Shown: piece after piece, positions 21,161-48,870 of the stretch
Numbering within the stretch: the first letter of the stretch is position 1
How the letters are laid out: each line of letters opens with the position of its first letter
Source: Callorhinchus milii
Taxonomy: Eukaryota
Length of the DNA stretch: 64,000 nucleotides
Assembly (NCBI RefSeq): GCF_018977255.1
Contig: NW_024704742.1
Location: 40,054,001-40,118,000, forward strand
Direction: 5' to 3'
The notes under the pieces: generated by a model
Database searches by the model: none
Seen by the model: the letters and a program-made list of their open reading frames with translations, nothing else
What the model was told of the DNA's origin: nothing
Program-made: the position numbers and the translations under genes

Positions 21161-21185
21161 NNNNNNNNNNNNNNNNNNNNNNNNN
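21161..21185. other. Assembly gap (25 N)
   Basis: Run of N between the duplicated segments. Confidence 0.99.
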
Positions 21186-24907: not shown

Positions 24908-25350
24908 TTATTGAGTTCCTGTGCAAGTGGTCACTGTCCAGGCGGGCAGGCAATAGGTGAAGGGGTAGTACTGATAGGAGGGCTGCAGCGACAGCAGTGA
25001 AGGTCTGAGCAGTTCTCCCGGACCGTACTGTCTTTGATCGTCCCGGATTAACACTTTCACCGCCACTTTCTTTGCCGCCGGAACCGAGGCCATCAGATCG
25101 GCGGCTAACTGCCGGCGCTTGGTCTTGTACCTGCGGTTCTGGAACCAGATCTTGACCTGGGTTTCGGTGAGTTTCAGGGAGGAGGCCAGGTCTGCGCGCT
25201 CGGGTCCCGACAGGTACTTCTGGTGGTTGAAGCGGCGCTCAAGCTCGAAAACCTGAGCGTGAGAGAAGGCGGCCCGGGAGCGCTTCTTCCTCTGTTTGGG
25301 CTGATCCGGACTCTGGTCGGACTTCGAGTCTTCGTCAACTGGGCTCGGAG
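24908..25350 (-). CDS. NKX3-2: Nkx3.2 (Bapx1) exon 2: homeodomain, Bap/NK2-SD domain and C-terminus
   Basis: Acceptor TTCATTCCCCAG|CT, phase 1. Translates [91 protein letters not shown]...[15 protein letters not shown], closely matching Nkx3.2. Confidence 0.93.
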
Positions 25351-25689
25351 CTGGGGAATGAAGGCACGTTTGATTAAATGCACACTATCTGTCTGTCTGA
25401 CTATATCTCCGCTCATCTTCGCTGCTCCCGACAGTGGAACGCAGGCGGATGGAGAATAAATCCGGACTGTGCTGCACATATCGCCCCCGGGGACTGTGGA
25501 GCGAATCGCCGACATCCAGTTTCAGAGAGAGAGAGAGACTGAAATGCTGAATTCCTGTGCCTTTGCGTTATGCGACGAAACGCTTTTTAAAAAAAAAACC
25601 CCACCCCAATCCCTCGTTTTAAAACCAACAGCTGAAACAGCTGATGCACATTGTGCAACATTTGGGGACTTATTAAAGTGTTTTGTTAC

Positions 25690-26128
25690 CTGACAGGTTC
25701 TCGGACATCCCCCCGTTGCACAGCGAGTCCTTGCTGTCCTCTCTCTCCATTTCTTCCCTAAAACCCGAGTCCGCTTCCTTCGGGGGTCTCGTCTGTAAGG
25801 GACACGCGGCGGAAATCTCCAGCTCCTTCTCCGAGCTGTAAACCCAATGGTTTTTACTGTCATTCTCATCGCTGACCCCCGAGTCGGAGTCACAGCAGAG
25901 CTGATCGCTGGGCAGATCCCCCCCTGTCTCGGTTTGAGGAGGAGGAGGAGGAGGAGGAGGAGGAGAGGCGTTCAGCTTGTTGCAGGGATCCAAACTGTCC
26001 AACACCTTCCAACAGGTTGCGGGCGAGAAGCGGGACACCTCCAAACTCTTCGGGTGTCGACTTTCATCCTTTCTGGTGAGGATCGACTGGATGGAAAACG
26101 GGGTCAAGGTGTTGCCACGCACAGCCAT
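25690..26128 (-). CDS. NKX3-2: Nkx3.2 (Bapx1) exon 1: TN/eh1 motif and DSDS acidic motif
   Basis: MAVRGNTLTPFSIQSIL start typical of Nkx3.2, CWKVL, DSDSGVSDEND. Donor TCAG|GTAACA. 439 nt + 443 nt gives an open 293-aa protein. Confidence 0.93.
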
Positions 26129-26456
26129 CTTAGCGAAACGCCTTCAACGCGGTATCACAAGTGTGCAAACGCTCAGCTCAGCTCAGCTGGTGTGTGTGTG
26201 TGTGTGTGTGTGCGCGTATGTGTTTATATATATATATATATAAGGATATTAAAACAAAATTAACTGCAGTATCCGTCTTTTCCCGGCGGGATGAGGCTGA
26301 ATGTCATCGCCCTTGCTTGGGTTAGTGTGTGAGTGTGTAAGACAAGATCAGTGCAGGAGCTTGCACACACACTCTGCGATCTCTCTCTCTCTTTCTCTCT
26401 CTCCCTTTCTCTCTCTCTCTCTCTCTCTCTCTCCCTTCGTGTCAGTGCTCCTCCGG

Positions 26457-26497
26457 TGATTGACAGCCGCGCCACACGACACGCGGCATCCCATTGG
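26457..26497. promoter_or_regulatory. Pbx-Prep/Meis decamer plus CCAAT box in the Nkx3.2 upstream region
   Basis: Exact TGATTGACAG at 26457-26466 and ATTGG at 26493-26497, about 330-370 bp upstream of the ATG in CpG-rich sequence. Confidence 0.5.
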
Positions 26498-28130
26498 GTT
26501 CTCACAAGGAGGCTTTGCTGGGTCCCTCGGTCTGGTTGGTTTCTTGGCTTCAACCCTTTCCAGGCACCAGACATTGGTGCACAAGACGCGATTCGGAGGA
26601 AACTTCTGCAGTCTGGGGGTTTGCAAATCAAAATTCACCGAGACGCCTGCGGCGAGGAGACCCCACGCCCCGCGGTTAGATAACCCACACTTGGATATCA
26701 ATTTACTTATTATCTGTCGCAACGCCGGACATTCACTCACTTCGTGGCTGTTTGCGGGGCATCGCTGTGCCCAAATTGCCGGCCTGCAAAATGCACGAAA
26801 GCAATTGACGGTAAAAAAAAAAATACCCGTCAAGCGTTTTGAGACGCCCTCCCGACCTGGAAGGCGTTGGGGCAAATGCAAGGATTAGTGTCAGTGCTAT
26901 TTGGGAGTGATTCCTTTGCTTTGCACGTTATTGGGCAACTTCGCTGCACAGCTCTCCTCGGAGTTTAGGAGAGTTGGCACTTGATCATTAAATAGTCGAC
27001 TTTTTTTTTATTTATGTTTCTGTCTAAAAAAAGCGAATGGATTTGTGCGATTCGCACGTTTGCGCCCCAAATACGATGACGCTATACTTGTGTGGGTACA
27101 TCCATACGAATAGAGGGAGAGAGAGAACTCTGGTGGGAACTTCCTCGTGATGTTTGAAAGCCAACTTTCGAAATGCACTTCATAAATAATGCCATGTCAT
27201 AAATATAACAACGGCTTCGATTCAATGTGGGTGTCTGCGAGGTAATTAATATTGTAAACATGTCCCCACTGTGACAAGAGTGTCAACCACAGAGGTTAGG
27301 AGAGAGAGAGAAAAAAAAACACCTAAAAAAAAACAGTCAAATCACAGTGCGTCCATTTGAAAACGTCGGGACAGCGAAGGCAGTAAGTGGGGGGTGAGGG
27401 GGGGGTGAGTGTTATTGCATGGGGACTGGGGGGTTAAAAGCAGAACAATGCACACATTAAAACTGTAAAGATAAACCGTCCTTAAGCACAGATTTGCTTC
27501 CTGGGGTTTGGCGGACGAGTTGGGTGGTCCGCGTTCATTTCAGCAGCTTTAGCAAACCCCAAATGGCCTTCCTCTCGCGGCCCCAACCAATAGAGACGGG
27601 GGAGGGTGTGGGGTGTGTGTGTGTGTGGGGGGGGGGGGGTCGGCCTGAGAAACCATATAAATTATAACCTGTTGGTTTGTTTGCACAGCAATCACAGCCG
27701 CTAATTTATAGGCAGCGCAAAGCATCGCACGGTGGAGGGTTGGACTTTGCTGTTGCCTTTGCTGTTGCTGAAGCCATCTCTCTCTCTCTCTCTCTCTCTC
27801 CACCCTCAGCTGTAAGCTGTCCGCGGGCATCGCTCTTAAATCACACCCGATTTAGCCGCACACTAGTAAAATTGCACCGAAAGAGACTTAAATCACTTTA
27901 AAATCTAAACACGGAATAGTTGGGATTTTTTTTGTTCTCGCTCTCCCTCTTTATACAGGAAAACAAAACTTCCTTATACAGTGTTTTGAGGAGAGTCGAG
28001 CCATTTTTCAGGCGTTTTTGTCGTAAGTAAAATAGCACAGGACGACAAATACCCGCCCCGGGCCCTGGCTCCTGTTATACAGGACATTCAGATTGAATTG
28101 TTCCGAATTCTTTATCGAATAAACAGCTTT

Positions 28131-29289
28131 ACACAAACACACACACACAAACACACACACAGAAACACACACACAGAGAAACACACACACAGAGAAACAC
28201 ACACACAGAAACACACACACAGAAACACACACACACAGAAACCAACACACACACAGAAACACACACACACACACAGAAACACACACACAGAGAAACACAC
28301 ACACAGAGAAACACACACACAGAAACACACACACACACACACAGAAACACACACACAGAAACACACACACAGAAACCAACACACACACAGAAACACACAC
28401 ACACACAGAAACACACAAACAGAAACACACACACAGAAACCAACACACACACACACACACACACAGAAACACACACACACACAGAAACACACACACACAC
28501 ACACAGAAACACACACACAGAAACACACACACACAGAAACACACACACACAGACACACACACACACAGAAACACCACACACAACACACACACACACACAG
28601 AAACACACACACAGAAACACACAAACAGACACACACACACACACACACAGAAACACACATAGACACACACAGAAACACACACAGAGAAACACAGAAACAC
28701 ACAAACACACACACACACACACAGAAACACACACACAGAAACACACACAGACACACACACAGAAACACACACACACAGACACACACACACAGAAACACAC
28801 ACAGAAACACACACACACACACACACACACAGACACACACACACAGAAACACACAAACAGACACACACACACAGAAACACACACACACACAGAAACACAT
28901 ACACACACACAGAAACACACACACAGAAACACACACACACAGAAACACACACACACAGAAACACACACACACAGAAACACACAGAAACACACACACACAG
29001 AAACACACACACAGACACACACACACAGACACACACACACACAGACACACACACACAGAAACACACACACAGACACACACACAGAAACACACACACACAG
29101 ACACACACACACAGAAACACACACACAGACACACACACACACAGACACACACAGAAACACACACACAGACACACACACACACAGAAACACACACACACAC
29201 ACACAGAAACACACACACAGAAACACACACACACAGAAACACACACACACAGACACACACATACACACAGACACACACATACACACAGA

Positions 29290-29321
<32 letters not shown>

Positions 29322-29606
29322 GAAACACACACACACAGAGAAACACACAAACAGACACACACACACACACACACAGAAACACACACACACAGACACAGAA
29401 ACACACACAGAGAAACACACACACAGAGAAACACACACACACACAGAAACACACACACAGAGAAACACACACACACACACAGAAACACACACAGAAACAC
29501 ACACATAGACACACACACACACAGAAACACACACACACACACACACACAGAAACACACACACACACACACACACAGAAACACACACAGAGAAACGCACAC
29601 ACAGAG

Positions 29607-29649
<43 letters not shown>

Positions 29650-29659
29650 CACACACACA
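28131..29659. repeat. 1.5-kb interrupted (CA)n satellite with GAAA/GAGAAA/GA spacers
   Basis: Continuous (AC)n-AGAA units. This is the source of the 500-670 aa low-complexity ORFs. Confidence 0.98.
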
Positions 29660-29849
29660 ATGAAAGACTGGGGAGGTGTTTTGGTAACCGAGCTCTCATC
29701 ACTTGGCACATTTGCAAACAATGCAAATCGATTTGGCGTAAAAAGAAAAGTGCGAGGGATGAAACTAAAGACGGAAACACACAGCTTCTTAAGTGCTGCG
29801 TATTCTGGGCTCTGACACGCAAGAGCAAAAAGCCGTGACAGCGTCCTCC

Positions 29850-29893
29850 TGAGTGAGTGAGTGAGTGAGTGAGTGAGTGAGTGAGTGAGTGAG
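29850..29893. repeat. (GAGT)n microsatellite
   Basis: About 11 perfect units. Confidence 0.95.
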
Positions 29894-30647
29894 CGGATTG
29901 TGTGTCTGAGTCGCTCTCAACAACCCCCCAAACTCTGTGCAAAGTGACCACAAAGTAAAAGGGGGACAGTTGACTTAGGATGAAGCTGTGGGGCAACACT
30001 CCCCGATAGCTCACGCTGATCACTTACAACCAGATACACCTTCCAACTTTATTCACATCCAAATGATTCGGGTGTGCATTTACCTCCGCACTACACAAGC
30101 GACCCGTCGTGGGTAGTGAAGATGACAGTACGTGTTGGGAGAGAGATATTGGCTTCAGTCATTTGGATCGGGAAAATCAAAGTGTCCCAATTGCAAAACT
30201 GGCGGGACACTTAAAACAGTATTTTACAATATTGTGAATGTCGGATACCTTTAAAGGGGGAGCATTCAACCGCCCTGAAGGGATCAGCAAAGGTTATTTT
30301 AGCAGTAGTTGGGACACCGAAGACTAAATGGGGTTTGTTTGAATTACAGCCCAGCTGTAGCAAACTGCAGCTTTGGTCCATCATCCCAGCCTTAACTCTG
30401 AATCTGACAAGCATCCTCTGTACCCTTCACACGACTCCGATCTAAAACTACTTCACCAACCTCCCCCCCCCACACACACACACATATAAGGTTATTTGAC
30501 TTCGAAGTTCAAACTTCAGCCCAAGGAAAACGAGCGCATCTAAACGTTGCTAACGCAATTATAACGCTGAAGGTCAGAGCTGCATCATTGATTGTTTATT
30601 GAAAGAATCACAGTTTAAGCCTTTGCACTGTAAAGAACAGAGAGACT

Positions 30648-31015
30648 AATAATAATGATAATCCTTGCATTTGATATAGCACTTTTCACGACTTCTAGAC
30701 GTCTCAAAGTGCTTCACAGAATATACTGTAAAGTGAATTGACTGTATGTTTGTGGGTGACATATTGTGCACAGCAATGTCCCACAAACAGTCTGGATTGA
30801 GTGACCACATTATTATTGTTTTTTTCTTGAGGGATTATTATCAGGCGTGTGGAGTAAGGAAACTTGCCCAAGGTTTTACCCTACTTGGAATTGAATTATT
30901 ATTGTTTTTTTGAGGGATTATTATCCCCGGAAAAGCAATCCATCTATCGACTAACAACCGGGTTCCTACTTACTGCCAGGTAAACAGAAGTGTGTGGAGT
31001 AAGGAAAGTTGCCCA
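30648..31015 (-). mobile_element. SINE copy (5'-truncated) plus rearranged fragment of the same family
   Basis: Tail CCTTGCATTTGATATAGC, core CACAGCAATGTCCCACAAACAG, and GTGTGGAGTAAGGAAA(C/G)TTGCCCAA occurring twice. Confidence 0.8.
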
Positions 31016-33779
31016 ACATTAAATAACTACTTTTTTAAAAAAAATTAAAAGAAGGTCAGAATATGCCTCAGTTGTGAAGACATGACTCATATGCTGACAG
31101 ATCCATGGTGTCAGTAATTTGCACCCTACAGATCTCCAAACTTTTGAAGTCCCGAGTTGCGTTGTTTCCATGCGCCATCTAGAGTCTTAGCTGATGAGTG
31201 GCATGTTCTGGGGGTAAAGGTTCAATTACATAAAATAAGCAATTCAATACAAAAACCTTAAAACACTTCTATTTTGTTCCTTTGGATTTTTCAAACAATT
31301 ACAAGGTTTGTGCTTTCTAAAAATGTTCATCTACTCCTTTAGTTCTTATCTGAAGGTGAAATCAAGCATCAATCGCAAAGCTACATGTTGTAAAGTAGCA
31401 GGTGAAGGAAATGTTTAAGATACCAGGAAGTATTTTCTCACACTGAAGATAAGCTGCAGCTGGAATGATGGGTGTGGCTGGGGCTCTGGAATCATTTCAA
31501 AAAATATTGATACTATCATGGGAAGATAGTGTATTGGAATGATGAGATAAAAAATAATCTTTTTTACTTGAACCTGTCATAGTTGTGTGATACTTAACCA
31601 AGTGACTGTTGATCACCCTTGCTTGCCTCCTTCACCTGCTTCACAAATATTTGTTGGAAATGGCCCAGGAGCTGGGATTTGGGGTTGATGTCCCCATCTA
31701 GTGATCTCATCCATGGGGAATACTTCCCACTGGCCCTCCCTTATGAGTCACAGAAACTGAAAGTCATGATGTCAAGTGAGAGGATAGTCTATCCTCCCAA
31801 ATCCTTCCTGGTTTCATTCCATGAACTGTGGTAAATAATGGGGTGTTGTAAAACCAACTCGATCTCACATTATAACGCTGGGATCCAATTTGTGATAGTT
31901 ACAAATTGATTTTTAAACAGCGGATCTGGAACTTCACTTAGATTAGATATCTTGCCAGGCATCAAGAGTTTCCTTTGGCCACAATCCAGAAGCCCAAACT
32001 AGATTCAGCATTCAAGCACAACCCCAGAGGGGCACAATCTTGTATCTACAGGATTCACCGTTTAAAGCCCTTTTGCTTTGTGGGTGAACATGACAACCAA
32101 TTTGTGCACAGCAATGTTCCACTATAACAGCCATGAAGTGATTGACCATTTTTATATGGGGTATTGTTGGGAGACTGGGAGAAACTCCAAGCTCTGTGAG
32201 CAGGAATGATGTAATGAGGAAAAAACAATATTCAAGATGATCTGGAACAAGGCGTGGCAGATGGATTTTAATGTAGATAAACATGGCAGGGTACATTAGA
32301 ACAAGAAATGCCTGTACATAACAAAGGGGCCACAATCGGTAGAGGTGGAGAAGAAAGGTTTTCGATGTGATTATTGATTATTTCCTAAGATATTTGTGTC
32401 AGTATGAAGCTGCTGGCGACAAAGCTAATCAAATACTAGATTGCATTTGGAGGGTATTTCAGTCTAAATCAAATTGTTGGTAGCTGAGTAGGTTGATGCA
32501 CTATATGGTCCACTACTGCTCTATTTGAAGATTTGATTCCTGGTCTATGCTGAATTGATTGATCTCAGCCAGGATGATGGTTGGATGCTACAGTTGTGTT
32601 TCCATAAATACAATCACAAAATATATAGTTGAATAATTAAAAGAAAAAAGATAATTTACAGTATTTAACAGGTTATTATATTTGTGTTTTTTAAGGCTTA
32701 TTTCATTGTCACCACTTTCACAGATTTTTTTCCATGTACACTGAAAATGATCATGCTTGGTGGAAGCTAACCAGTAAAAATGACAGATTATAAACCTTTA
32801 AAATCAAATTAAAAAAAGCACTGCTGTTTGCCTCCACTGATTTTGCCTTCACCTGTTTGCCTACACCTAACAATAATTCTGAAAAGTCCTTTGAGATGTT
32901 TCAATGCGATGAGGTGCTGTAAAAAGCAAATTCTTTCTTAAGAGATGTCGCTGAGAATTGAATACACCACAGTTCTCTCTAGTTTTAACAGAAACGTCGC
33001 CATCCTGTGGGCAATATATTTTGAACCATTTTTTCAAAATCACTGTCATTCAAATGCACCACAAAAAAATCATTGGCTCGAGATATCTACATTTGACAGT
33101 TCTGATTAATACATTTGTTTATTTATTCAGTTAACTATAAATGCAGTAAAGAAGGATATTATACTAAGCTTGAGAACCAAATATCTTGCACTGATTGCTT
33201 TTCTCTTCCCAATAATTTTTATCCAATTTTCCATACTTTCCTTCTCACTTGAATGTGGTTTGACTCCTCTTTCTTTCTACTGAGGCTTGACTCCATCATT
33301 CCCCCGATAAGATAGTTACTTTGCCATTATGGCTTGACAATGAGCACGGTGAGATTTATTTTATTGAAGTGGATTCTGAGACCAATATGTGCCAGCTGTT
33401 TATTGTAACTAGAGATCAAAGGCATCATCGACGATTGTTTATTTAACTGGATTATTCAGTTCTGTTGTTGATTTTCATAAAACTTATTCCACCCCAACTG
33501 ACAATGAGCTGGCATTTATCATGAAAAGGTTTACTCTCTGTCAATATCTGGATCCCACCAAAGTGTCTTCCTTCAAATAACCCAGAAATGACAGTAGTTA
33601 CAAACAAGCTTTGTGTAAACAAATACTAGTCATATGATAAAGCCATTTTCCCATCTTAATATGTTATTAACAACTAAACTCATGTTCATTTTGAAGCATT
33701 ATTCCACATGTAGATGGTATATTATGTACCAAGTTGTTTCCTGTCAATTCTTTTGCCAATTTGACTTGCTATTCAGCCT

Positions 33780-34030
33780 TCTTCCTCTCTCAAAAGATGC
33801 TGATGCTCGGGGTACGTCTCCACAGGCAACAACAGGCCTCTAGGATGTCAAGTGCCTATTCCATTACATCAAACTGTTTCTTAAATGAGTTCATTGTCCA
33901 GGTGTCAAACACCCTCCCTGGTAATCCATTCCAGCTGTTGAGCTGCCTCTGTGTAAATAAATACTTCCTGGTGTATATCCTAAACTGGCATTGTTGAACC
34001 TCTATCCTCTCGTGCCACTGTTGGTGAACT
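33780..34030 (-). mobile_element. CR1-clade LINE 3' fragment
   Basis: RKYLFTQRQLNSWNGLPGRV...MNSFKKQFD is the typical CR1 ORF2 C-terminus. Confidence 0.75.
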
Positions 34031-35188
34031 ACATAGACAAAGGTTAGCTCCTGTGGATAATCATTGCCAGCAGAAGAGTATATACAATGTACCTTCATTA
34101 CCATTTCAGTTAAATAGTGTTTATTCATTCAAAACAATTCAGTCATCAAGTGTACGTGAGTATGTCTGTACAAAACCATTGGTGTGCCAACAACTCATGG
34201 ATTTCTGCCCATTATTATGTAGTCTTTCATAAATTTATTCTTTTAAATTGTTGACTTTAGACTAATTATAAGCTTATATCCAAACAGACTTTAGACTCAT
34301 TATAATATTATATCTAAACAGACAAACAGGGTATCCAAATAGACTGAAGGTTCCACCTATGTATGCTAAGTACACTTGGAAATTTCCCTGTGGCTGGAAT
34401 GGAATGAGCACCCCGCTTATCTAATTCAGGAAGGGATCAATTGCAGGTTGGCAAGAGCGAAGGTTGGAGTTCAACCTGCTAAAATTGCGTAGCTTGTCAT
34501 TGGGAGCACTGTTTGGCAAGATTCCCACTGCTTGTCCAGCTAGGACTATAATACTATTTCAGGCTTTGACTTGCAGGATTAAGAAGTGGGAAGAATCCAC
34601 TGACTTCGCTACTGCTCCAAATCCTGCTGACGAACCAAGTAGTCAGGTCCGTGAATACTGTGGACCTGACTGGATTAGGAACCGGATTACCATGATGGGC
34701 AGAGAGCGTTGACTCAATTTCTATGTTCCATTGTATGGCATGTCACTTTGCAGCCAATTCAGCCCCCAAAAGACCCCAATTACCTTCCCCCAAAGTGTAT
34801 AGGCATTAGTTGGTCATTTGACAAATGCAGGTTTGAGCCATCACGAGGTCCCAAGGATTTCTTATGAGCCTTTTGGTGACCAGCAGAACTCAGCATGAAA
34901 TACATGAGAGAATTGCCACCATCTACCTGTTGAATGGGTCAGTGTTCAAGGGGCTGAGTGCAGTGCTTGTACCTGCATCCCCAGGTGGATTTGTCAACAC
35001 CATCTGCAAACAGAAGCTTAAACAATGCACAATGTGGGATATGTGTCTTCTACTGTCAGAAGGAGAGAGCTATGTATGTTTTAAAATCAGAGGAGATCCC
35101 TCCAGTATGAATGTAAATAAGTCCTGGTACAAAGCAACAGCAATTAAGTGTTCATGATTGTCAATCTAAATCTGAATATAATACACTG

Positions 35189-35637
35189 AGGGTTAGTGGT
35201 TAGAGCACTCGCCTCGCAACCGAGAGGACCTGGGTTCGATTCCCGGGCAGGGCGAAACATTGGGCAAGTTTCCTCATTCCACACGCCTCTGTTTACCCAG
35301 CAGTAAATAGCAACTGGATTATTAGTCGATTGCTTGATCATTTTTCTGGGGTTAATGATCTGTTCAAAATTAAATAAATAAATAAATTTGTCACTCAATT
35401 CACGACTGTTTGTGGGACATTGCTGTGCGCAATTGACTGCTGCATTTCGCCCACAAATATACAGTCAATTCACTTTACAGTGTGTTCTGTGAAGCGCTTT
35501 GGGACGTCCTCCTGACGTGAAAAGCGCTATATCAAATGCAAGGATTATTATTATTATTATTATATTCTGTCAAGCGCTTTGAGACGTTTTGAAGACGTGA
35601 TGAGGCACTATATCAAATGCAAAGATTATTATTATTA
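35189..35637 (+). mobile_element. tRNA-derived SINE (longer variant) with a second tail appended
   Basis: Perfect B box GGTTCGATTCC near 35233, Deu-like core, tail to about 35560, then a second AAGCGCTTTGAGACG...ATATCAAATGCAA(TTA)n tail. Confidence 0.9.
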
Positions 35638-37559: not shown

Positions 37560-38710
37560 AACAATGACTTTTTGTAAATAGTTGGGTCCAGGGGTAAAAG
37601 CCACATCCTCAATATTACAACAGCCTGTGGTTTATGAAAAGTCACTAATGCACAACTAACTTCACAGAGTTTTTTTTAACAGGATCATTTAGAAAGTATT
37701 TAAAGGAGGAACAATGGATGCATTCTACTGGATTTGATAATTTTCCACAAAAGAAATTACCAATTACAATTAAGGCACACAATGGAGTGGGATGCAACAT
37801 TGTGGTAAGGGTAGAATATTTGCTGATAGGTAAGAGATAAAGTTAGTAGTTAGGATAAAATAGATTGTTTGATTTCTAGCTACTGACAAATGGTGTTCTC
37901 CCAAAGATTGATCCTGGGGCCATGCATATTTACTCCACATATATATGGCTTGGAAGTAATGAAGGAATAAAGAGGAATTCATCTACGTCTGTAGATGTCA
38001 CTGTGGTCTAAAATTTGGTGCTGGTATCAGGAGCCACAAATAGTTGAAGAAGAAAGGCCTTGTCGGCCTATGTGACACAGTTCTCATTACCAGCAGGAAT
38101 CACTGTTATAATCCCTATTATTAATATCATATTTAGTAATTGCTACAGTGAATTTAAAGAAGGTAAGAGAAACTAATAAAATAACATAAACGGGTTAAAT
38201 GCCTGGGCAGAATGAAGGCAGGTGCAATTCAATATTGCAAAGTTTGCATGGAAGCATGACAGCAGATGGGACTTTATGAAAAGTCAGCAATGCACAACTA
38301 TTGTCACAGAGTTTTTTAACAGGATCATTTAGAAAGGAGAAACAATGGATGCATTCTACTGGATTTGATAAATAGGAATGCATTGGGATGAGTAGATGAT
38401 CAAAGGGATTTAAGGGTATAGGTAAGTAAGTCAATAACAGTGAGTTTGCAGATTCAGAAAGTAATCATAATGCCTAATATGATCCTTTCTATCAAAACAT
38501 ATAGATATATAGATTGCATATAGATCACTAGAGGAGTACAGAAGAAGACCATTCAACTCTTTGATCTCATCCTTCCAGACTACCTACCTTATCGGTTTCC
38601 CATTACTCTTACTGGTAACCAGTACTAATTGTCCATTACCTTTTGTGTAAATAAGTACATCCTGGTGTCTCTCCTATAATTTGTCCAAACGCAAATTAAA
38701 TCTAATTTGT
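37560..38710. mobile_element. Cluster of highly decayed CR1-like fragments with an internal direct repeat of about 100 bp
   Basis: GGATGCATTCTACTGGATTTGATAA (VD.VYLDF-like) at about 37716 and about 38347. GVPQG-like relic near 37890. RMYLFTQKVMDN on the minus strand at 38630-38700. Confidence 0.55.
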
Positions 38711-38713
38711 GCC

Positions 38714-39038
38714 AATAATAATAATAATAATCCTTGCATTTGATATAGCGCTTTTCACGTCGGGAGGACGTCCCAAAGCGCTTCACAGAACACACTGTAA
38801 AGTGAATTAACTGTATATTTGTGGGCGAACGCGGCAGCCAATTGCGCACAGCAATGTCCCACAAACAGTCGTAGATTGAAAATGACCAATTTTTTTTTAT
38901 TATTATTTTTGGTTTTGGAGGGATTATTATTAGGCGTGTGGAGTAAGGAAACTTGCCCAAGGTTTCGCCCTGCCGGGAATTAAACTCAGATCTCTTGCTT
39001 GCAAAGCGAGTGCTCTAACCACTGAGCTACAGGACTCC
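38714..39038 (-). mobile_element. Full-length tRNA-Ala-derived SINE
   Basis: Minus strand begins GGAGTCCTGTAGCTCAGTGGTTAGAGCACTCGCTTTGCAAGC and ends ATATCAAATGCAAGGA(TTA)n. Confidence 0.93.
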
Positions 39039-40819
39039 ACTGTAGGCCAAGTCATAGAACATTACATTAAATAAAATGTTCACAGTCTTCATTGCTGTGC
39101 ATTTTGCTTCTCATTGTTTCTAAAAGACAGACACTGTTCATGTTATTTAATCTAACTAGATTCCAAATGTAACAGTCATATCCTGATTGGGGGAGAATAC
39201 AGATCATCCAATGATGGTAATAGACGATAGAGCTGTTTTTAGAGATATTTCTCAGTTACATTACTGAAAATTTCATGCAGTTATTAACAGCTCAGTTTTG
39301 AAATGTGCATTTTGTGTAAAAAATGCAATTAAAATGAATTATTTTCAATAATTTATTTATACAATAAATCAACATTTATGATTTGATGTTTTGCATATTG
39401 AAAAATGTTCATTCACCTAGTTAAGAGAACAACCTCTTGATCAAACACACATGAAACTTAACTCGAGGTAGTCATTTAGTTTTACTTATATCAGAATCCA
39501 GCAGATTCACTGCTTCAATTTATTTCGATCCATATATTGCAGACAGTAAGCTATTTATTTCTAGAGTAAAGTGTAGGAACTTACTTCACATTATGACACA
39601 AGGGAAATATATGAAACTATAGATGCATAATAATCACTCTTTTACCTCATTATTTCCAGATTTGTTCAAACGGTTTCATATCTATTACTAATTGTTTGTC
39701 CTGAATTGGTAATTGATCTACCGACATTTACTCACAAAATACACGATTTCTACTATCAATTGCTCATCTGCTAATCCAACCTATTGATTTCATAATGTCT
39801 CACTTCCCTAATGAATAGTTCCTTCATATTCAGTTCATAATAACATATTTAGTTAGTTTTTTTCCCTTTAACTTCAATTTCCCCATTATTTTTCCACTTG
39901 CAGTAAAATATTCTATAACTGCTGCCTTTTACATTGCTCTGGTAAAGAGAGCAGAAAACGTTCAAAAACAACATCTCAAGATTTCATTTCATAGTTCTGA
40001 TACTTACAAACAGTAGTAAATTTGCTAGGATGATAATACAGAAATATATCCTTCTATACCTAGCTATTTAAATAAAAAATAAAAACAATTATCCAGGTAA
40101 GAATGTTAGCATTCTATTGCAGAACTAGAAGTAACTTTGTTATATCACTATTTGCTCTTCCATCATATAACTTTACAATCTCACAGCTATGTTCTTAATC
40201 CAGAGCCACCAATTGACTGCTCCTGATAGATAATCAACACAAGATTAATTCTTACCTGTATCAATATATAGCTACCTATTTTACAAAGTAAAATATTTTA
40301 CAATTACATAAATTTGTGTATGACAAGTAACCTTATATCCTGTATGATTGCAAGAAATAAAGTACCAATCACAAAACGATTTAACTTTCATTCATTATTC
40401 CTGATTTGTTCTCATTCAGAAGACCTTTATACTTTATAAATCCCTGACTTTCCTGATACTATTTGTTCTATAATCTCCAGTCCATTTCTGATTTCTAATT
40501 TCTCATATCTCACTGTCATCATGTTATTATAAGCAAGATTTAATTTCGTAATTCTGATACTTTCAAACAGTAGTAAATTTGCTTGGGTGATAATACAGAA
40601 ATAAACATGTTGAAGATAATTGTACTTGTGCTTTAATATGCTTCTTAGAAGACTGCAATATGCCAATCATTCTGTCCATTCCTGAGATCCTTTACCATTC
40701 AAGCAATAGATATGGCACCCTGTGCTCTAAAGATCCAAATATGCATTAACCTAATGGTTCAGTTTAGTGCTGGGGAGCACTGCATTACTGGAGGTGCCTT
40801 TCTTTGGAAAACAAGTGTT

Positions 40820-42320
40820 ACACACATAGCTACAACAAATTACACTTGTTTAGTGCCCTTCAAGTTGGAAAGATGTCCCAGGGTGCTGGATAATCAGGGG
40901 TTTTGGACCCGAACTGGGAGTTGGAGTCAGAAGGAGAGAGGGCAGGGGTGTGGGGGTGGGAGGGTGGATGAAGGGATGGTCGAAAGTCTTCAGATGGGAC
41001 TTGAAGGAGGCAAGAATGGGGGGTAAGGTGAAGAGATTGTGGGATAGAGTTCCAGAGTGTGGGGGCAGAGATGCTGAGTGCCTGACCGTCAATGGTGGAG
41101 CGGGAAGTGTGGGGGACTTGAAGCAGGCCAGTCTCCACTGAACAGAGGAAATGGACAGGTTTATATGGGATTATGAGGTCAGAGAGGTAGGGGGGGGATC
41201 AAGACCATGGAGGGCCTTGAAGGTAAGAACAAGGGTTTTGTACTTGATTCTTTGAGGAATGGGGAGCCAGTGAAGCCGGGCAAGGATGAGGATGATTGGT
41301 TCCTGGAGCCTGGTGTGGGAGAGGACATGAGTTGCAGCATTCTGAATAATCTGCAGCATGTGGAAGGAAGAGTTGGTAAGTCCAGTGAGCAGGCAGTTGG
41401 TGTAGTCAAGCTGGGATGTAATGAAAATGTGGATCAGGGTCTAGGCGGCCTGCGTTGAGAGGAAGTGGCGGAGGCGGGCAATGTTGCAGAAGCGTGGAAA
41501 GGTGGAATGGGTCATGGCATGAATGTAGGGTTTGAAGAATAGCTGAGGGTTAAAAAGGACACCGAGGTTTTGGAATGGCTAAGTGAAGTGAATGGTGATA
41601 ATATCAGTGGCTGAGGTGAGGAGGTGCTGCTGGGTGCCAAGCAGGAGGGCTTCTGTATTATTGGAGTTGAGGGTGGAGGCGGCAAGTTGAAGTTGGATGT
41701 CATCCGCATACATGTGGAAATTGACCCCATGTCTGCAGATGACATCACTGAGTGGGAGCATGTATAAATTGAAGAGGAAGGGACCAAGGACAGAGCCCTG
41801 AGGGATGCCACATGTGACAGTACGAGGGCTAGAGGAGAAGTGCAGGTGGTGGAAAAGGTAGGATTGGAACCAGATAAGAACAGAACCATTGAAGTGAAGG
41901 TGAGAGGAGAGGAGATGAAGAGCAATAGAGTGGTTAACAGTATTGAGAAGTCGAGAAGGATGAGGAGACAGAGAGAGCATGGATCGCAGGTGGTCAAAAT
42001 GTCATTGGACACTTTGACCATGGCTGTCTCTGTGCTGTGAGCAGCACAAAACTCAGATTGGAGGGGTTCATGGAGGGAATCCTGGGAGAGGAAAGAGCAA
42101 AGCTGGAAGTGACGACTCGTTCCATGATTTTTGATAGAAAAGGAAGGTTTGAAGTTGGTGAGCAGAGATCAGTCAAGAGAAGGTTTTTTGAGGGTAGGGG
42201 TCATGATGGCTGTCTTTAGGGGGATGGGAATGGTGTCAGTGGACAGGGAGAGGTTAACGAGGTCTGTCAGTGGGTGGGGGGGGGGGGGGGGGGGCAAGAA
42301 GGTGGAGCTTGAAGGTGAGG
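40820..42320 (-). mobile_element. Degenerate L2 LINE (RT region through 3' end)
   Basis: SNLPFLSKIMERVV, VKVSNDIL, GIPQGSVLGPFLFNLYM, FHMYADD, LHWLPIPQRIKYK and APTLWNSIP spread over several frames. Confidence 0.9.
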
Positions 42321-44739
42321 AGAGGGGCCTGTCTGCTTGTTCAGGTGGATTTTAAAGTTCCCATAACCCAAATCAAAAGAAATGGAGTTTATTCTGGTCT
42401 CTTAGCTAACAGTCCTCAAGAAAAATGTGGTCATTTACATTTTGGCTGTTTGTGGGGCATTTCTGTGTACAAATTCGCTCCAAACAGCATTTGCCTATAA
42501 ATACGCTATCATTACACTTGAAAGCAATTAACGTTGAGCCATTTCAACAGTACAGGTGCTACATATAAGGGTTATGTTATTTAAAAATACAATAGCTGCT
42601 TATTTCTTAAACAGATGTTTAAAAAAAATAATTGTATATCTGAAAGGATTTTCTCCCTCCTGTTACTATATTCCTGCACTGCCTTCTCAATACTCAATAC
42701 TTTGACATTTTCGTAAGTGTCTACTCCCTGTACAAGTTGGATCCATAACCGAACATGATCTGTTAATATCTGTCTCAGGCTAACAGTCCAGCAAGTTAGC
42801 CAATGTCAGACTGCTTTAGTTCTTTTTGCCCAGCTTCTTCCGGCTTGAGTCAAAGTCTCAGCTAAATATTTCACTCCCCTCCCCCAACAAAAGCACACAT
42901 AACCATGAGATTGCCCAGATGTCGCTCATGCTCTCACACTTCTGGATCTCCACTGCACCACCTGTATTGCTCCACATCAGCTGCCTCAAGCCCTGAATCA
43001 ATGCTCCCATGTTGTCGCTCACTGTGTCTCAGCAGCAGCTAATTGAAGCCTAGTGCCAGCAAAACGTGTCTCGAAGCAGGACGTTAACACAGAAAGTATT
43101 GGATTGGATTGCACCTGTCATTATAAAACACAGACTATATTAACAAAGACCTATATTTTTTTATGAAATAAGTTCCACACACCAAAACTGATAGTCAGCG
43201 CGGATGAACATTCTTCAACAAGAAAGGGTTTCACATATAAACTTAAAATTTGTTTAAACATATCGTTTACTATTCACTTATTTTTTCCTGAACAAAAACT
43301 ATCATGAAAAACAACAATGAATTCGTAAAGAAATTATATATATCTTTTTAAAGTCTGCATTTTGGCTCTTTACCGTAAACGTGGCAAATGAATGAATGAA
43401 TGAATGAGTCAGTGAATGTGCAGTAAATCCAATCACAGAGACGTTACGTCAATGTTATAGATTTAAACATGTTAAAATGGCAATACACTCATTGCGTTTA
43501 TAATAGATATCCATCAGTAATGTATGAATACGCCAACAAGCTTGAACATGTTCATTAAGTTGCTGGATGCATCGGGTTGCAATCCCTTTGCTTGTCACTC
43601 CTTACTGAGTATCAGTTGCTGTAGCTCTGCTCTGAGAATATCCACTGAATATGATTCACACAAAGGGCATCTGCTTCCCCCAACTTACTGAGTGCTAATT
43701 GTGCCCAAAGGGTTGGCGTCATTCCCTCTTGTCACTTTTTTTTCTTTTAAAAAAAATGGAAACTACATTTCAATTCCTGAAATAAAGATTCGCTTCCCTT
43801 CAGAAAAAGGTCTGCCCTTTTTTTAAAAAAGAAAAGTACGATTCCAGAAACTATTAATAGTTTGAACAGAGTTGAACGGAATGCCAGCCACTATTCCTGA
43901 GTTACACCATAGAAAGTAGTCTGTATCTGGAAATCACATTTTGTTAAAAAAAAACTCTTCAACTGAAATGGCACCACAGCTTCTGATATATAACATATAC
44001 TTTACTCGAAGCTTTGTAACTTGCACCCAGTACTCTATCATGAAACTGATTATTTGGATTTTAAAATGCATGTCATATTTCCGACAGAACAGAGCCCTCA
44101 AGATGTCAAATCTGCTGTGTTTGGTACATGGTAAAGTGGCACCTTATTAAATGTAAGACTTAATCAGTTATATGCCCACAAAAAGCAAAAATATAAAACT
44201 AATATGAACCCAATTATGTCAAATAACACTTTTATACACCATGCCGGCGCAAATGCAGTCACTCGTTTCAAAAGAGTTTTACAAGTAGTGCACATTATTT
44301 AACTGCATGAATTTGGCTGTATGTATGTTGCTCTGATCTCTATATATTTGCACCTGACTATACAAACAAACATACACATCTGTTATAAACTCACTATATA
44401 ACCAAGTAAGTTGCTAACGAGTAAACGAGGATTTAGGGGTATGGCTAACTGCAGTGTATTATTCGACATAAAACGTGAAATTATCATCACAATAGGACCC
44501 ACTTCTTACTAAAACATACACAATCGTGTGTTTTGCTCCACGGTAATATCCCAGACTGTGCTGCACTATTACCTTCCTGGGCAAATTGAAAGCTTCCTCT
44601 TAGATAATCTGTCGATAGCTTCCGAAAATAGACGAGCGCTGCTGATACCCCCGTCTTGTAAATTGTCTGCTCTGCTTATCTCTCCCTAAATAAATACAAA
44701 CAGGATTATAAGAGCGATAGAAGCCACTTTTTCTCCAGG

Positions 44740-44850
44740 CACCGCCATCCTGACGCCGCTCCTGTTTACCACGTTGTAACTGACAGTGAGGTCTCACTGC
44801 CAATTCTCATTGGTAACAGTCTCAGAGTGAGTGACAGGATGCAAACAGCA
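44740..44850. promoter_or_regulatory. Candidate enhancer: TALE, Fox and NF-Y motif cluster
   Basis: TGTTTAC 44763, TGACAG 44781, CCAAT 44800, ATTGG 44809 and TGAGTGACAG 44828 within about 80 bp. Confidence 0.4.
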
Positions 44851-47008
44851 CCTAAACTGCGGACACTTTTAAACTGTGATTTTTTTTATTGGGAAAAAAG
44901 ATGTTTCGATCACATTTTGCAGAAATCACCAAGAAACACGAGACATGTGGCCAACCGAGAGCAGTAAAAAAAAACCAACGCAATCTGTTTCACATGGGTG
45001 AAGGATATTATAGTTTGGGAACTAAAGACTAGGCAATTGGTAAAACATTTAATTGTTGCTTGGAAACTGTATCGTGAACATTGGGAATACCAGGAAGGGC
45101 CTTCCTACTGCATTGAGATAACTGGATACAATTAGCATGGTTCCATCGTGGGATATAACTCTTCCATCTACTTTATTCGTGAGTGCATTGCAAACTGTAT
45201 TCATTTTCACGACATTTTCCCCCTTACTCAGACTATGTCTAGTGTCACAGAAACCTCAGATGAATTAAAGAATGAGTTTCGATTGCCTGGGAAAAAAGCA
45301 GCATCTCCACATCACCCAAATCCAACCAAACTGGGCAGAGGGTTTCAGTGTGTGCACTCTCAGACCGGGCTATTCCCGCTTCTCAAAACACTGACATCAA
45401 CTCAATTGCGTTCATTCAGTACAAAGGTATCATTTATGTATGAAACGTATCATTTCCATAACACGTTTGCTAACAAGGCATTCATTCTATTCTATATTTT
45501 ATCGATGATTTTCTTTATATTATTATGAATTGTTGGTCCCACCTCCTTGTCTCACAATGTTAATATGTTTGTGTTTAACACAAGGGGCGACATTAGTGAC
45601 CCCCACCACCACTTACCCGCGGGATTTAAGTTTAAATTCTTAAATATTGCTCTCTTTGTGAATCGAGATTCAGCAAAAGTCTAATTTTACTTCTGTTATT
45701 ATCTCCAATTACGGAACCAACATTGTCTGTGCTCGGGATCTAACCCTAGTTATCCATATGGCGATGTGAAAATCGTTGTAATTGCATAAATCAGAAGTAT
45801 TTCGTAGCTATAAGGTCAGTTCCAGCGAAGGACAATCCACAAAGACATTACATTTCAGATGTGATTCACAACTGTAACTCATTTAGGAAAATCGATGAGT
45901 TTATTTCTACAAAATAAAAAGTGTCGTATCTTGTCATTTCTCACGAGCTTTTGTTTGGTACACATGTTATTTTTTTAACAACAAATAACTGTACAGATTT
46001 TAGACACTTACAAATCCATTACTGGCCATTTACTTTGGAAAACCCTAGCACGATGGGCAAGTAAAATATTTCAAAGTAATCTGCAAGTAGATGGATAGGA
46101 ATACGTCTGTATGAAACACGACTGAGCTTTGTTCTGTAACATCATCCACAGCATTTATTTATTGCAAATATGCACTTCGCAGAACCTGTGCTCTGACACA
46201 TTAAATAATAGTTATTGGGGGAAAAATATATACATTTCCGCTTGCTGCCTCGGGCTGGTTAATATCTCCTCAGTAAAACAAAACTTATCTTGAAGAGCTC
46301 GATAGAGCGTCTGGTGTGAGCTATACAAGGAGTCAGGATGTGCAAACTGGATAAACAAAATTACTTAACAGGGGCTTTCAGATACATATGTGATGTGTTA
46401 TCAGGACTCCGATTAGATTGAATAGGATTCCTGTTTTGGCCACTTAAGGTCTGTATTGGTTGTGACATCCTTTTTTACCCGCTCAATGCTGAATACTGAC
46501 ACAAGCTGTTTGACTTCTCATAACTCACAACGTTTAACGATTAAATAACGTAACTTCCAGTCGTTTCGATGTTGACTTAACTCTTAAATTTTATTGAATT
46601 GATCAAACGTTACAAAAAAAAATATCAAAGGGGTGATTATTAAAGGGGCGATTCCAATAAATCTTTTTTTTCCTCCCCACCAAAGACAAGCATCAAGCCT
46701 GTAAAAAAAAAAACTCAAAAGGAAGTCTGGCACACAGTCACCTTCTAGAGAGAGAAAAAAATTCCGAAAAAAAAATGCATTCTTTATCCGCGTTACAAAC
46801 ACTGGTCAACTGGCTAAAAGAATTAAAAAATACTATAATAAATAATAATATTCAGCACTGTTCAATCTTCTATCGGCATCTCTTACTATTTACAGGGACT
46901 ACGTCTTTGCTTCTGTTTTATACATTGAGAATTGTTGGCATGAGGCGAAGGTGATCAGCTTTCCTGTCTTTACTGTATTTTCCTTGCTGTTTGGGGGCAG
47001 CTGTGGTC

Positions 47009-47637
47009 TCACCAAGCCCTGATCCCATGAAACGCTCCTTGCAGAGCCGAGACCCCAGCGCTTTGGTGGGCTTGAGTCTGTGCCGCAGAGTAGCCCATGT
47101 TGTTAACGTTGAAATTCATGCTCATGTTGACGAAGGGGGTGGCAGAGGCGCTCTGCTGAATGGGTGGCATGTTCGAGTACATGCAGCTGTAATCTCCGTC
47201 ATATGTGGCCGTGTTGTAGGTGGGGTATATGCTGTAACTGTAGGGTGCCATGCTGACGTTATACGGGGCGCTGTATGAAGGAGATCCGCCCAGACAAGGT
47301 TTCCCATCACGTACCAGCACAGGCACCGCGACCCTGCGGGGAGTGGGAGCTGCTCCTCCCAGCTCCAGACTCTTGTCCTGCCGCTGCCGTTTGCACTTGT
47401 ACCTGCGATTCTGGAACCAGATCTTGACTTGTGTAGAGGTCAATTTTAACACGTTGGCCAGGTGGTCTCTTTCGGGGGCAGACAGGTACCTTTGCTGTTT
47501 GAAGCGCCTCTCCAGCTCGTAGACCTGGGCCTGAGAGAACAACACTCGGGGTTTCCGTCTTACTCTCCGTCCAGAGCCTTCCAAAGCTTCGTGTTTCTTT
47601 GCTTCGTGTGTAATGTGCTTTTCCATTGAAATTCCTT
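47009..47637 (-). CDS. NK4-class (tinman / Nkx2.5-like) homeobox gene, exon 2: homeodomain, NK2-SD, Tyr-rich region, GIRAW end
   Basis: Acceptor TTTTTTTGCATTACGATCTAG|AA, phase 1. [74 protein letters not shown], terminal HGIRAW*. Confidence 0.95.
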
Positions 47638-48560
47638 CTAGATCGTAATGCAAAAAAACACGCTTTATTTTAAAACCAGGCGGGGACTCCCTTTGAAATA
47701 GCAGTTATATATATATATATATATCTATATCTATAAGGAACGTTTTTCTCACCCTTTTTTGTGAAATGGGTGATTTAACACAACGCTATAAGTTGTTGGA
47801 CTTGGTTGTAATGATCCAAGCTTTCAGTGGTGACATATGGGCAATAGACGTGGATTTCAAATATCGATTGGTTTTCTTGGCGACTGTATATTTTATAAGA
47901 ATATTAAAAAATTCATTTGAGCGTTAAATCCGATCTAAATAAGTTTTAAATTGAATATGTACATTACCAAGTCCCCCCAAATCTACCGACTATTTGGTGT
48001 TTTTCCCTCTATTTATTCTCTGTAGTTATTCATGCTCGGCAAATAGTCGGTTTCCATTATTTGTACAATATTTCTCATCACAACCCTAACAGCACATTTA
48101 CTGTATTGCAATTTCTTGCAAACCTTTAATACTCAAACATAACGTTTCCAGAATTAAAACTACTGTGTTGTATTTAACTCGGCGCCGTTGGCTGAGATGC
48201 AAACAAAGTAGAAGTCTCTCGGTATGTTTGGCGGCAGACAGGCAGTTCAGTGTGAGTGGACTGCAAAAGTGCTGAGATAAAAATCAGAGGAAAAAATCAG
48301 CAACACAGACCGACAAATCTGCTGCTTTATGCTTCGCTTAATTCATTGTTTTGATACCAAGTCCGTCGGAATGCAGGTAACATTTTTATGTTTATATACC
48401 AATCGTCCAACCGTCTAACAACTGGAGTAGGATACACTTGAAATTAATTCCATTTCACTCCGAGACTCATCTCTCATTCAACTTTAAGTGAAAGCGGCGT
48501 TCGCTGCCACCGTCGCCTTTCAGGTATTTGGTAAGTGATGGTAAGTGATGGTCTACTTAC

Positions 48561-48870
48561 CTTGACTGCTGTGCTGGAAAGGGACGTCTGAGTGTGATTC
48601 ACGGGAGCTCACAGCATAGCTTACACTCACGCCGTGAGAAAATTCCGGTTCATCCCTCTGTACTTGGGATTTGACAGCCTCACTCCCAAGGGCAGCGAGG
48701 GCGCGCTTGCTTTGATTTGCCTGCTCCAACATACAGGAAGACGGGGAAGGGAGAGCGTCCGGAACTGCGCTCATATGACTTGCAATCCGTTGCCTCTGAT
48801 AGCGGTGCTCCAGGTTTAAAATGTCCTTCACGGAAAATGGTGTCGTGGATGACCCGGGGCTCGAGAGCAT
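48561..48870 (-). CDS. NK4-class (tinman / Nkx2.5-like) homeobox gene, exon 1: TN domain
   Basis: MLSSPGSSTTPFSVKDILNLE (TN domain) and PSSCML. Donor CAAG|GTAAGT. 310 nt + 629 nt gives an open 312-aa protein. Confidence 0.95.

Follow-up and report, generated by a model that had tools for sequence, protein, structure and literature searches.

The 64,000-nucleotide stretch of the elephant shark (Callorhinchus milii) genome analyzed here, hereafter the window, covers C1:40054001-40118000 of a 991.5 Mb assembly in 1762 contigs (numbered here with C) and carries two neighbouring homeobox genes of the NK3 and NK4 (tinman) classes. We read this pair as nkx3.2 and nkx2.5l, the latter being the NK4/tinman-class gene of the Nkx3.2 paralogon (human 4p15). 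On this reading, to which we give a probability of about 0.9, nkx2.5l is the sister of Nkx2.5 and a fourth NK4 copy produced by the two rounds of genome duplication in early vertebrates (2R), which cartilaginous fishes kept and bony vertebrates lost. Cartilaginous fishes are in turn without Nkx2.6. The proposal of a fourth vertebrate NK4 ohnolog kept beside Nkx3.2, which the original prediction had made from the DNA alone, is supported by the phylogeny of the NK4 proteins together with its topology tests, by a separate, BNIP1-linked Nkx2.5 gene and by the neighbouring genes. The idea is already known: the name nkx2.5l was given to this gene in zebra shark and thorny skate, where it was described as the fourth NK4 ohnolog, sister to Nkx2.5 (Nat Commun 2025;16:3802, PMC12019251). 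That study describes four NK4/NK3 loci, found neither nkx2.6/7 in chondrichthyans nor nkx2.5l in osteichthyans, and proposes a first-round split of nkx2.3/2.6 from nkx2.5/2.5l (PMC12019251). Our only increment is the holocephalan example, as 'elephant shark' occurs zero times in the main text of that paper and 'Callorhinchus' zero times in the 10 supplementary files searched, and a literature search for nkx2.5l showed no other relevant paper among those listed.

Both genes are intact, consist of two exons and lie on the minus strand, NK3 at 24908-26128 (293 aa) and NK4 at 47009-48870 (312 aa), with NK4 upstream of NK3 as the genes are transcribed and 20,880 bp between the NK4 stop and the NK3 ATG. 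The co-oriented pair about 21 kb apart that had been described from the sequence is therefore present. The features of the locus, in window coordinates, are the following:

24908-25350, minus strand: nkx3.2 exon 2, with homeodomain (Pfam Homeodomain, E 1.2e-21), RDDQRQY and YCLPAW...GTQ; the protein ends ...CTGTQ and the TAA stop is at 24908-24910.
25351-25689, minus strand: nkx3.2 intron, 339 bp, phase 1, GT...AG; once it is spliced out, the frame runs on without a stop over 293 aa.
25690-26128, minus strand: coding part of nkx3.2 exon 1, ATG at 26128, reading MAVRGNTLTPFSIQSIL..., with a TN-type motif (residue 9) and a stretch of prolines.
26129-47008, no strand: intergenic DNA that separates nkx3.2 from nkx2.5l, 20,880 bp, with an array of (AC)n (28131-29659) and, at about 41.2-42.2 kb, open reading frames (ORFs) of reverse-transcriptase-like repeats; no further gene was recognised in it.
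47009-47637, minus strand: nkx2.5l (NK4) exon 2, with homeodomain RRKPRVLF...WFQNRRYK (Pfam Homeodomain, E 6.5e-21), NK2-specific domain, C-terminal GIRAW and TGA stop.
47638-48560, minus strand: nkx2.5l intron, 923 bp, phase 1, GTAAGT...AG, the acceptor AG preceded by a pyrimidine-rich tract.
48561-48870, minus strand: coding part of nkx2.5l exon 1, ATG at 48870, reading MLSSPGSSTTPFSVKDILNL..., with a TN motif at residue 10 and a GTAAGT donor.

The spliced products of both genes contain zero internal stops, and the Pfam Homeodomain in exon 2 is full-length in each. In the NK4 protein it covers Pfam positions 1-57 of 57, with WFQNRRYK at residue 177, whose helix-3 tyrosine we take as a mark of the NK2 class. 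The same protein has TPFSVKDILNL at residue 10 and a second characteristic string at residue 204, which correspond to the TN motif and the NK2-specific domain; both strings recur identically in Callorhinchus Nkx-2.3. The spliced NK4 model agrees with the UniRef protein V9KH56_CALMI (Callorhinchus milii, 312 aa) at 311 of 312 residues, exon 2 being 100% identical, and because this match spans the splice junction the nkx2.5l intron is independently confirmed. The sole difference, T9S (Thr9 in the genome, Ser9 in UniRef; codon 9 at window positions 48844-48846), is probably a polymorphism between individuals. The complete homeodomain in each exon 2 and the match to V9KH56 across the splice junction argue that the NK4-NK3 pair is not a product of chance.

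Searches with NK4 exon 2 placed the gene in a family confined to cartilaginous fishes. Among the best 120 matches, proteins named 'Nkx-2.5-like' from 12 elasmobranch species (sharks, rays and skates) were 76-87% identical to it, all others listed apart from V9KH56 were at most 67% identical and carried the names Nkx-2.3, Nkx-2.5 or Nkx-2.6/2.7, and every class-named protein was of the Nkx2.3/2.5/2.6/2.7 type. The gene nkx2.5l is thus conserved across sharks, rays and a chimaera. The original prediction had anticipated that automated annotation would call such a gene Nkx2.5-like, and this is indeed the NCBI name used for the chondrichthyan-only clade; V9KH56 is labelled 'NK2 homeobox 5' in UniRef, which is misleading for nkx2.5l.

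The phylogeny of the NK4 proteins was built with IQ-TREE (LG+C20+F+G4, PMSF) from 52 rows picked by hand from two search listings according to source name and taxon spread, except for the window model and the exon-2 translation of another NK4 gene of this genome, on contig C13. A 284-aa Narcine nkx2.5l row was dropped as possibly partial, and many redundant bird, frog and teleost rows were left unused. The groups recovered, with their two support values, were the following:

nkx2.5l: 12 of 12 rows together, the window model and 11 from elasmobranchs; 100/100.
Nkx2.5 (chondrichthyan and tetrapod, including C13 exon 2): 12 rows; 99/95.
Nkx2.3: 14 rows; 93/88.
Nkx2.6/2.7: 14 rows; 100/99.
nkx2.5l and Nkx2.5 jointly: 24 rows; 100/98.

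Each of the four groups forms one side of a branch, and the stem branch of nkx2.5l is long (0.36). The window gene therefore falls outside gnathostome Nkx2.5, Nkx2.3 and Nkx2.6 and inside a clade of chondrichthyan proteins only. The C13 gene joins shark Nkx2.5 at 100/99.

The distribution of NK4 and NK3 genes in the rest of the assembly is consistent with this placement. A search of the genome with the window NK4 gave three loci, namely the window itself on C1, C7:712435-713037 and C13:7794338-7794913 (plus strand), and a search with the window NK3 gave two, that of the window and one at a distance of 34 kb from the C7 NK4, at C7:746508-746918. Exon 2 of the C7 NK4 is that of Callorhinchus 'Nkx-2.3' (V9KRN1), the C7 NK3 is 81% identical to Heptranchias 'NK3 homeobox 3', and the C7 pair is Nkx2.3-Nkx3.3. 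The C13 NK4 is 64% identical to exon 2 of the window NK4 and lies 22 kb from BNIP1 (Sec20) exons at C13:7816851-7817615 (minus strand), to which it is convergent; it is the true, BNIP1-linked Nkx2.5. Further NK2-type matches on C3 and C9 were 51-67% identical to the window NK4 over shorter spans, and we take these pairs to be of the NK2.1/2.2 type. Of the separate Nkx2.5, Nkx2.3 and Nkx2.6 loci for which the original prediction had suggested a search, the first two were found (C13 and C7) and Nkx2.6 was not. It had also held that a genome with only three NK4 and three NK3 genes would refute a fourth ohnolog, a rule that proves unsound: with three NK4 and two NK3 genes counted the fourth-ohnolog reading stands, because Nkx2.6 is the NK4 gene missing in chondrichthyans, and we rejected the argument from the number of NK4 genes.

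The identity of the NK3 gene as Nkx3.2 was examined in the same way. All four hallmarks that had been quoted for it are present in the 293-residue product: MAVR at residue 1, a motif at residue 192, RDDQRQY at 249 and YCLPAW at 279 with the GTQ-stop end. In a full HMMER search of representatives the best match of exon 2 was Latimeria Nkx-3.2 (87% identical), to which the full model is 68% identical across 274 alignment columns. A FastTree phylogeny of 122 rows placed the window gene in a 29-row clade (97) that holds all rows nameable as Nkx-3.2; the C7 gene fell among 'NK3 homeobox 3' and 'zampogna-like' proteins, in a clade of 32 rows (98). In a more careful tree of 24 named rows the partner of the window gene was Latimeria Nkx-3.2 (90/90), and that of the C7 gene was Heptranchias NK3 homeobox 3 (96/85). 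Furthermore, by eye, the C-terminal tails split the classes cleanly (...CTGTQ/...AAGTQ vs ...LCGG.H): the RDDQRQY...YCLPAW/GW...TQ end of the window protein is common to the named Nkx-3.2 proteins of Latimeria, Dipodomys and Epinephelus, and the C7 protein ends ...LCGGSH, as 'NK3 homeobox 3'/zampogna proteins do. The assignment of this gene to the Nkx3.2 type, made originally from its motifs, is supported by the match and the tree pairing with Latimeria.

The window holds no flanking marker gene, since in the Pfam scan of its flanks, which covered the longest 150 of 226 filtered ORFs of at least 55 aa (all 150 being at least 63 aa), the only credible matches were to RVT_1 (one of the three below the cut-off) and the few others were all below the cut-offs. 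Beyond its right end, contig C1 carries the following, in contig coordinates:

C1:40136392-40143640, minus strand: stanniocalcin, three Pfam exon matches, 18-26 kb beyond the right end of the window and adjoining nkx2.5l.
C1:40199951-40205065, minus strand: BOD1L1-like, an open exon of 1705 aa just downstream of the COMPASS-Shg1 match.
C1:40211787-40211867, minus strand: BOD1L1-like, a COMPASS-Shg1 match (29.4 bits, E 9.3e-4, 27 positions), the only such match in the genome.
C1:40538515, plus strand: CPEB ZZ domain.

We read the C1 gene as BOD1L1 on the assumption that a giant exon is a trait of BOD1L1. Other CPEB loci lie at C13:7502511 and C7:20475283, with a fourth on C22, and because BNIP1 and the CPEB copies distribute among them, C1, C13 and C7 are three separate paralogous regions. 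A search with Hemerythrin (PF01814) for the 4p15 marker FBXL5 gave no match in the genome and was uninformative. The stanniocalcin-like, BOD1L1-like and CPEB neighbours support a match to the Nkx3.2 paralogon, and on the right side the proposed check of the flanks came out accordingly, with a BOD1L1-like gene beyond NK4 and BNIP1 instead beside the C13 Nkx2.5. The order and strands of nkx3.2, nkx2.5l and the stanniocalcin-like, BOD1L1-like and CPEB genes on C1 are identical to those tabled for zebra shark Chr1, nkx3-2 (-), nkx2.5l (-), stcl (-), bod1l1 (-) and cpeb2 (+) (PMC12019251, supplementary file 6). The other shark loci are given there as atp6v0e1-crebrf-bnip1-nkx2.5-stc2-bod1-cpeb4, nkx2.3-nkx3.3-slc25a28 and stc1-nkx3.1-slc25a37-entpd4 (PMC12019251). 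In nearly every jawed vertebrate examined, Nkx3.2 has also been reported to have Bod1l1 on one side and Rab28 on the other, and the elephant shark is not among the named exceptions (eLife 2022;11:e75749, PMC9665848), and the available portions of that text make no mention of NK4 and stanniocalcin-like genes between elephant shark Nkx3.2 and Bod1l1.

Other readings of the pair had to be weighed against this evidence. The linked NK4 gene might be the chondrichthyan ortholog of Nkx2.6/Nkx2.7, with the pair corresponding to Nkx2.6-Nkx3.1 (human 8p21) and an NK3 gene that merely looks like Nkx3.2. This would fit with the lack of a separate Nkx2.6 in chondrichthyans and with the presence of only three NK4 genes in the assembly, and the stanniocalcin gene just beyond the window NK4 recalls STC1, which we take to adjoin human NKX2-6. 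We consider it very unlikely, however, since the free tree unites nkx2.5l with Nkx2.5 (100/98) and constraining it with Nkx2.6 lowered the log-likelihood by 14.67, with p 0.029 in the approximately unbiased (AU) test. A lungfish Nkx-2.6 query retrieved osteichthyan Nkx-2.6/2.7 proteins at the top, and its best 120 matches included no chondrichthyan Nkx-2.6 and no nkx2.5l, the best chondrichthyan ones being named Nkx-2.3. In addition, the next gene along is BOD1L1-like, exon 2 of the NK3 gene is 87% identical to that of coelacanth Nkx-3.2, and a separate stc1-nkx3-1-slc25a37-entpd4 locus is tabled for zebra shark and skate (PMC12019251). Alternatively, nkx2.5l could be a duplicate of Nkx2.5 that arose in chondrichthyans, landed beside nkx3.2 and diverged fast, with no origin in 2R; its position nearest to Nkx2.5 in the tree, its long stem (0.36) and its occurrence, as known, in chondrichthyans only are all compatible with this. 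Yet chondrichthyan and tetrapod Nkx2.5 group together without nkx2.5l (99/95), which suggests that nkx2.5l and Nkx2.5 would have split before the chondrichthyan-osteichthyan divergence, and constraining nkx2.5l with the five chondrichthyan Nkx2.5 rows lowered the log-likelihood by 12.10, with p 0.032 in the AU test. Moreover, the whole neighbourhood is paralogous, with STC-like, BOD1L1-like and CPEB genes on C1 against BNIP1, Nkx2.5 and CPEB on C13, in the same manner as the shark sets stc2a/bod1/cpeb4b and stcl/bod1l1/cpeb2 (PMC12019251), and an NK4 gene also adjoins Nkx3.2 in lamprey and hagfish, there on the opposite strand (PMC9665848). A late duplication therefore appears highly improbable.

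It is more improbable still that the window NK4 is Nkx2.5 itself and its neighbour a fourth NK3 ohnolog, the alternative that the original prediction had left standing. The UniRef name 'NK2 homeobox 5' points in that direction, as does the resemblance of the adjacent stanniocalcin exon to human STC2, a neighbour of NKX2-5. This alternative is refuted in practice by the NK4 gene on C13, which has BNIP1 at a distance of 22 kb and falls with shark Nkx2.5 (100/99); the window NK3 groups, with weak support in the careful tree, with Nkx3.2, and the next gene has the giant exon expected of BOD1L1 and not of BOD1, which is a small protein. Several points nevertheless weigh against the identification of the pair as nkx3.2 and the fourth NK4 ohnolog. 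AU p-values of about 0.03 are moderate rather than decisive, and the NK4 tree is unrooted, is without invertebrate or cyclostome NK4 and without actinopterygian or mammalian Nkx2.5, and takes its group labels from automated source names. In the careful NK3 tree the Nkx3.2 group received only 42/28 (88/37 when a divergent partial bird row was removed) and Nkx3.3 64/93, and the NK3 trees are without Nkx3.1, as 0 of 30 named representatives were Nkx3.1. The BOD1L1 call rests on the 27-position Shg1 match and the giant open exon, and the 1705-aa exon matched no Pfam family and had a best Atlas score of 0.75, too low to use. Lastly, in a PDB comparison in which only STC2 chains matched, the stanniocalcin exon showed about 70% identity to human STC2, which alone would suggest the Nkx2.5 paralogon; this signal is resolved by the BNIP1-linked Nkx2.5 on C13 and by the published shark data.

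The fourth-ohnolog reading places the window gene in the same family as nkx2.5l of zebra shark and thorny skate, since the window protein and 11 elasmobranch proteins form one clade (100/100), which includes a Stegostoma protein that may be LOC125455892 of the published study. The locus has the same design, nkx3-2 and nkx2.5l sharing a strand and bod1l1 and cpeb2, here the BOD1L1-like and CPEB genes, coming after them (PMC12019251); the copy described here is holocephalan, whereas those published are from a shark and a skate. As in zebra shark, a stanniocalcin-like gene lies between nkx2.5l and bod1l1 in the elephant shark, and the skate table is without it (PMC12019251). Nkx2.5 (BNIP1-linked; human 5q35), the sister group, shares with nkx2.5l the TN motif, the NK2 homeodomain and the NK2-specific domain, and its neighbours are paralogous and of the same kinds, STC, BOD1 family and CPEB (PMC12019251). 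It differs in being a separate gene on C13 next to BNIP1, without an NK3 neighbour, only 64% identical in exon 2 and with the ending GIRPW vs GIRAW in the window protein. Nkx2.6 (zebrafish nkx2.7; with Nkx3.1, human 8p21) is likewise an NK4 gene that kept its NK3 partner and a stanniocalcin gene, but it belongs to another clade (100/99) and another paralogon, stc1-nkx3-1-slc25a37-entpd4. It is absent where nkx2.5l is present, and the functions of the two may overlap, as has been suggested (PMC12019251). In Drosophila tinman-bagpipe and in the amphioxus NK4-NK3 pair (NKX2-6/NKX3-2) NK4 lies a short way upstream of NK3 and in the same orientation, as in the window, and in amphioxus STC and BOD1L1 also lie within about 350 kb (PMC12019251). 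The amphioxus order is NK4, NK3, STC, BOD1L1 (PMC12019251), whereas the elephant shark NK4 stands between NK3 and STC, and unlike the Drosophila and amphioxus pairs the locus in vertebrates belongs to a set of four paralogous copies.

From its conserved parts and general knowledge of the NK2 class, nkx2.5l is predicted to be a sequence-specific transcription factor that would bind DNA through its NK2-type homeodomain, and its TN motif is of the type expected to recruit Groucho/TLE co-repressors. Cardiopharyngeal tissue is the probable site of action of the gene, which may stand in for functions of the absent Nkx2.6. The simplest view of the co-oriented linkage of nkx3.2 and nkx2.5l would be that it preserves the ancestral tin-bap arrangement, which regulatory DNA used by both genes may have kept intact.

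The stanniocalcin-like neighbour also gave some observations of its own. In a word-based search all 8 matches of its exon were 'stanniocalcin-like' proteins of seven shark species or the Callorhinchus entry itself (A0A4W3ID90), with no ray, no skate and no STC1 or STC2 among the 8, and in 5 of 5 species with both values the stanniocalcin-like gene and nkx2.5l were on contigs of equal size, which suggests a single chromosome. The gene looks like a third stanniocalcin ohnolog; a literature search on elephant shark stanniocalcin showed nothing on it among the papers listed. One Atlas cluster of 93 chordate proteins combines Stanniocalcin and COMPASS-Shg1 domains. The likeliest source of these is the fusion, in gene models, of STC with an adjacent BOD1-family gene, which would fit the wide occurrence of that adjacency. 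Between the stanniocalcin-like and BOD1L1-like genes, C1:40172310-40173593 (plus strand) holds two ORFs resembling immunoglobulin-type domains (...STILLKCEVGSSSLPISYSWYK...); the published shark table, which lists selected genes only, has no immunoglobulin-type gene there (PMC12019251).

Our searches of the elephant shark genome found no Nkx3.1 (two NK3 genes only), no STC1 or STC2 (one stanniocalcin) and no BOD1 (one COMPASS-Shg1 match), and all four genes are tabled for zebra shark and thorny skate (PMC12019251). It is possible, although we think it doubtful, that the chimaera lineage simplified its NK/STC/BOD1 gene set further than sharks and rays did. Equally possible are that the missing genes lie in unassembled microchromosome sequence or that an exon-by-exon search missed them; the corresponding loci are on microchromosomes in elasmobranchs. 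If the loss were true, the stanniocalcin-like gene would be the only stanniocalcin of the elephant shark, and nkx3.2-nkx2.5l-stcl-bod1l1-cpeb would be the most complete surviving copy of an ancestral NK3-NK4-STC-BOD1-CPEB array.

The remaining observations concern the DNA around the two genes. The array at 28131-29659 is a 1.5-kb imperfect (AC)n microsatellite (765 copies, 80% matches), and it accounts for the strong GC/AT skew at 28-30 kb and for the long His-Thr and Cys-Val ORFs. Remains of retrotransposons were seen as Pfam RVT_1 fragments at window positions 1609-2674 (minus strand) and 56271-56492 (minus strand) and, in the ORF list, as 'FHMYADD' reverse-transcriptase-like ORFs at about 41.5-42.2 kb in the intergenic region; similar ORFs recur in the 200 kb to the right. 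N bases, 25 in succession at 21161-21185 and a single one at 50759, mark small assembly gaps or masked bases. A jaw-joint enhancer, JRS1, has been described downstream of Nkx3.2 and detected in the elephant shark among others (PMC9665848), and the 25-N run falls downstream of nkx3.2, where this enhancer should be.

The holocephalan case dates the nkx3.2-nkx2.5l-stcl-bod1l1-cpeb block, including its stanniocalcin-like member, to the common ancestor of the chondrichthyans. The pair itself shows, as was published in 2025 for a shark and a skate, that cartilaginous fishes retained the ancestral tinman-bagpipe linkage on the Nkx3.2 paralogon. Vertebrates therefore started with four NK4 genes, and the losses differed between lineages, chondrichthyans having lost Nkx2.6 and bony vertebrates nkx2.5l. 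This is relevant to the way in which the regulators of heart, pharynx and jaw joint were divided after the duplications.

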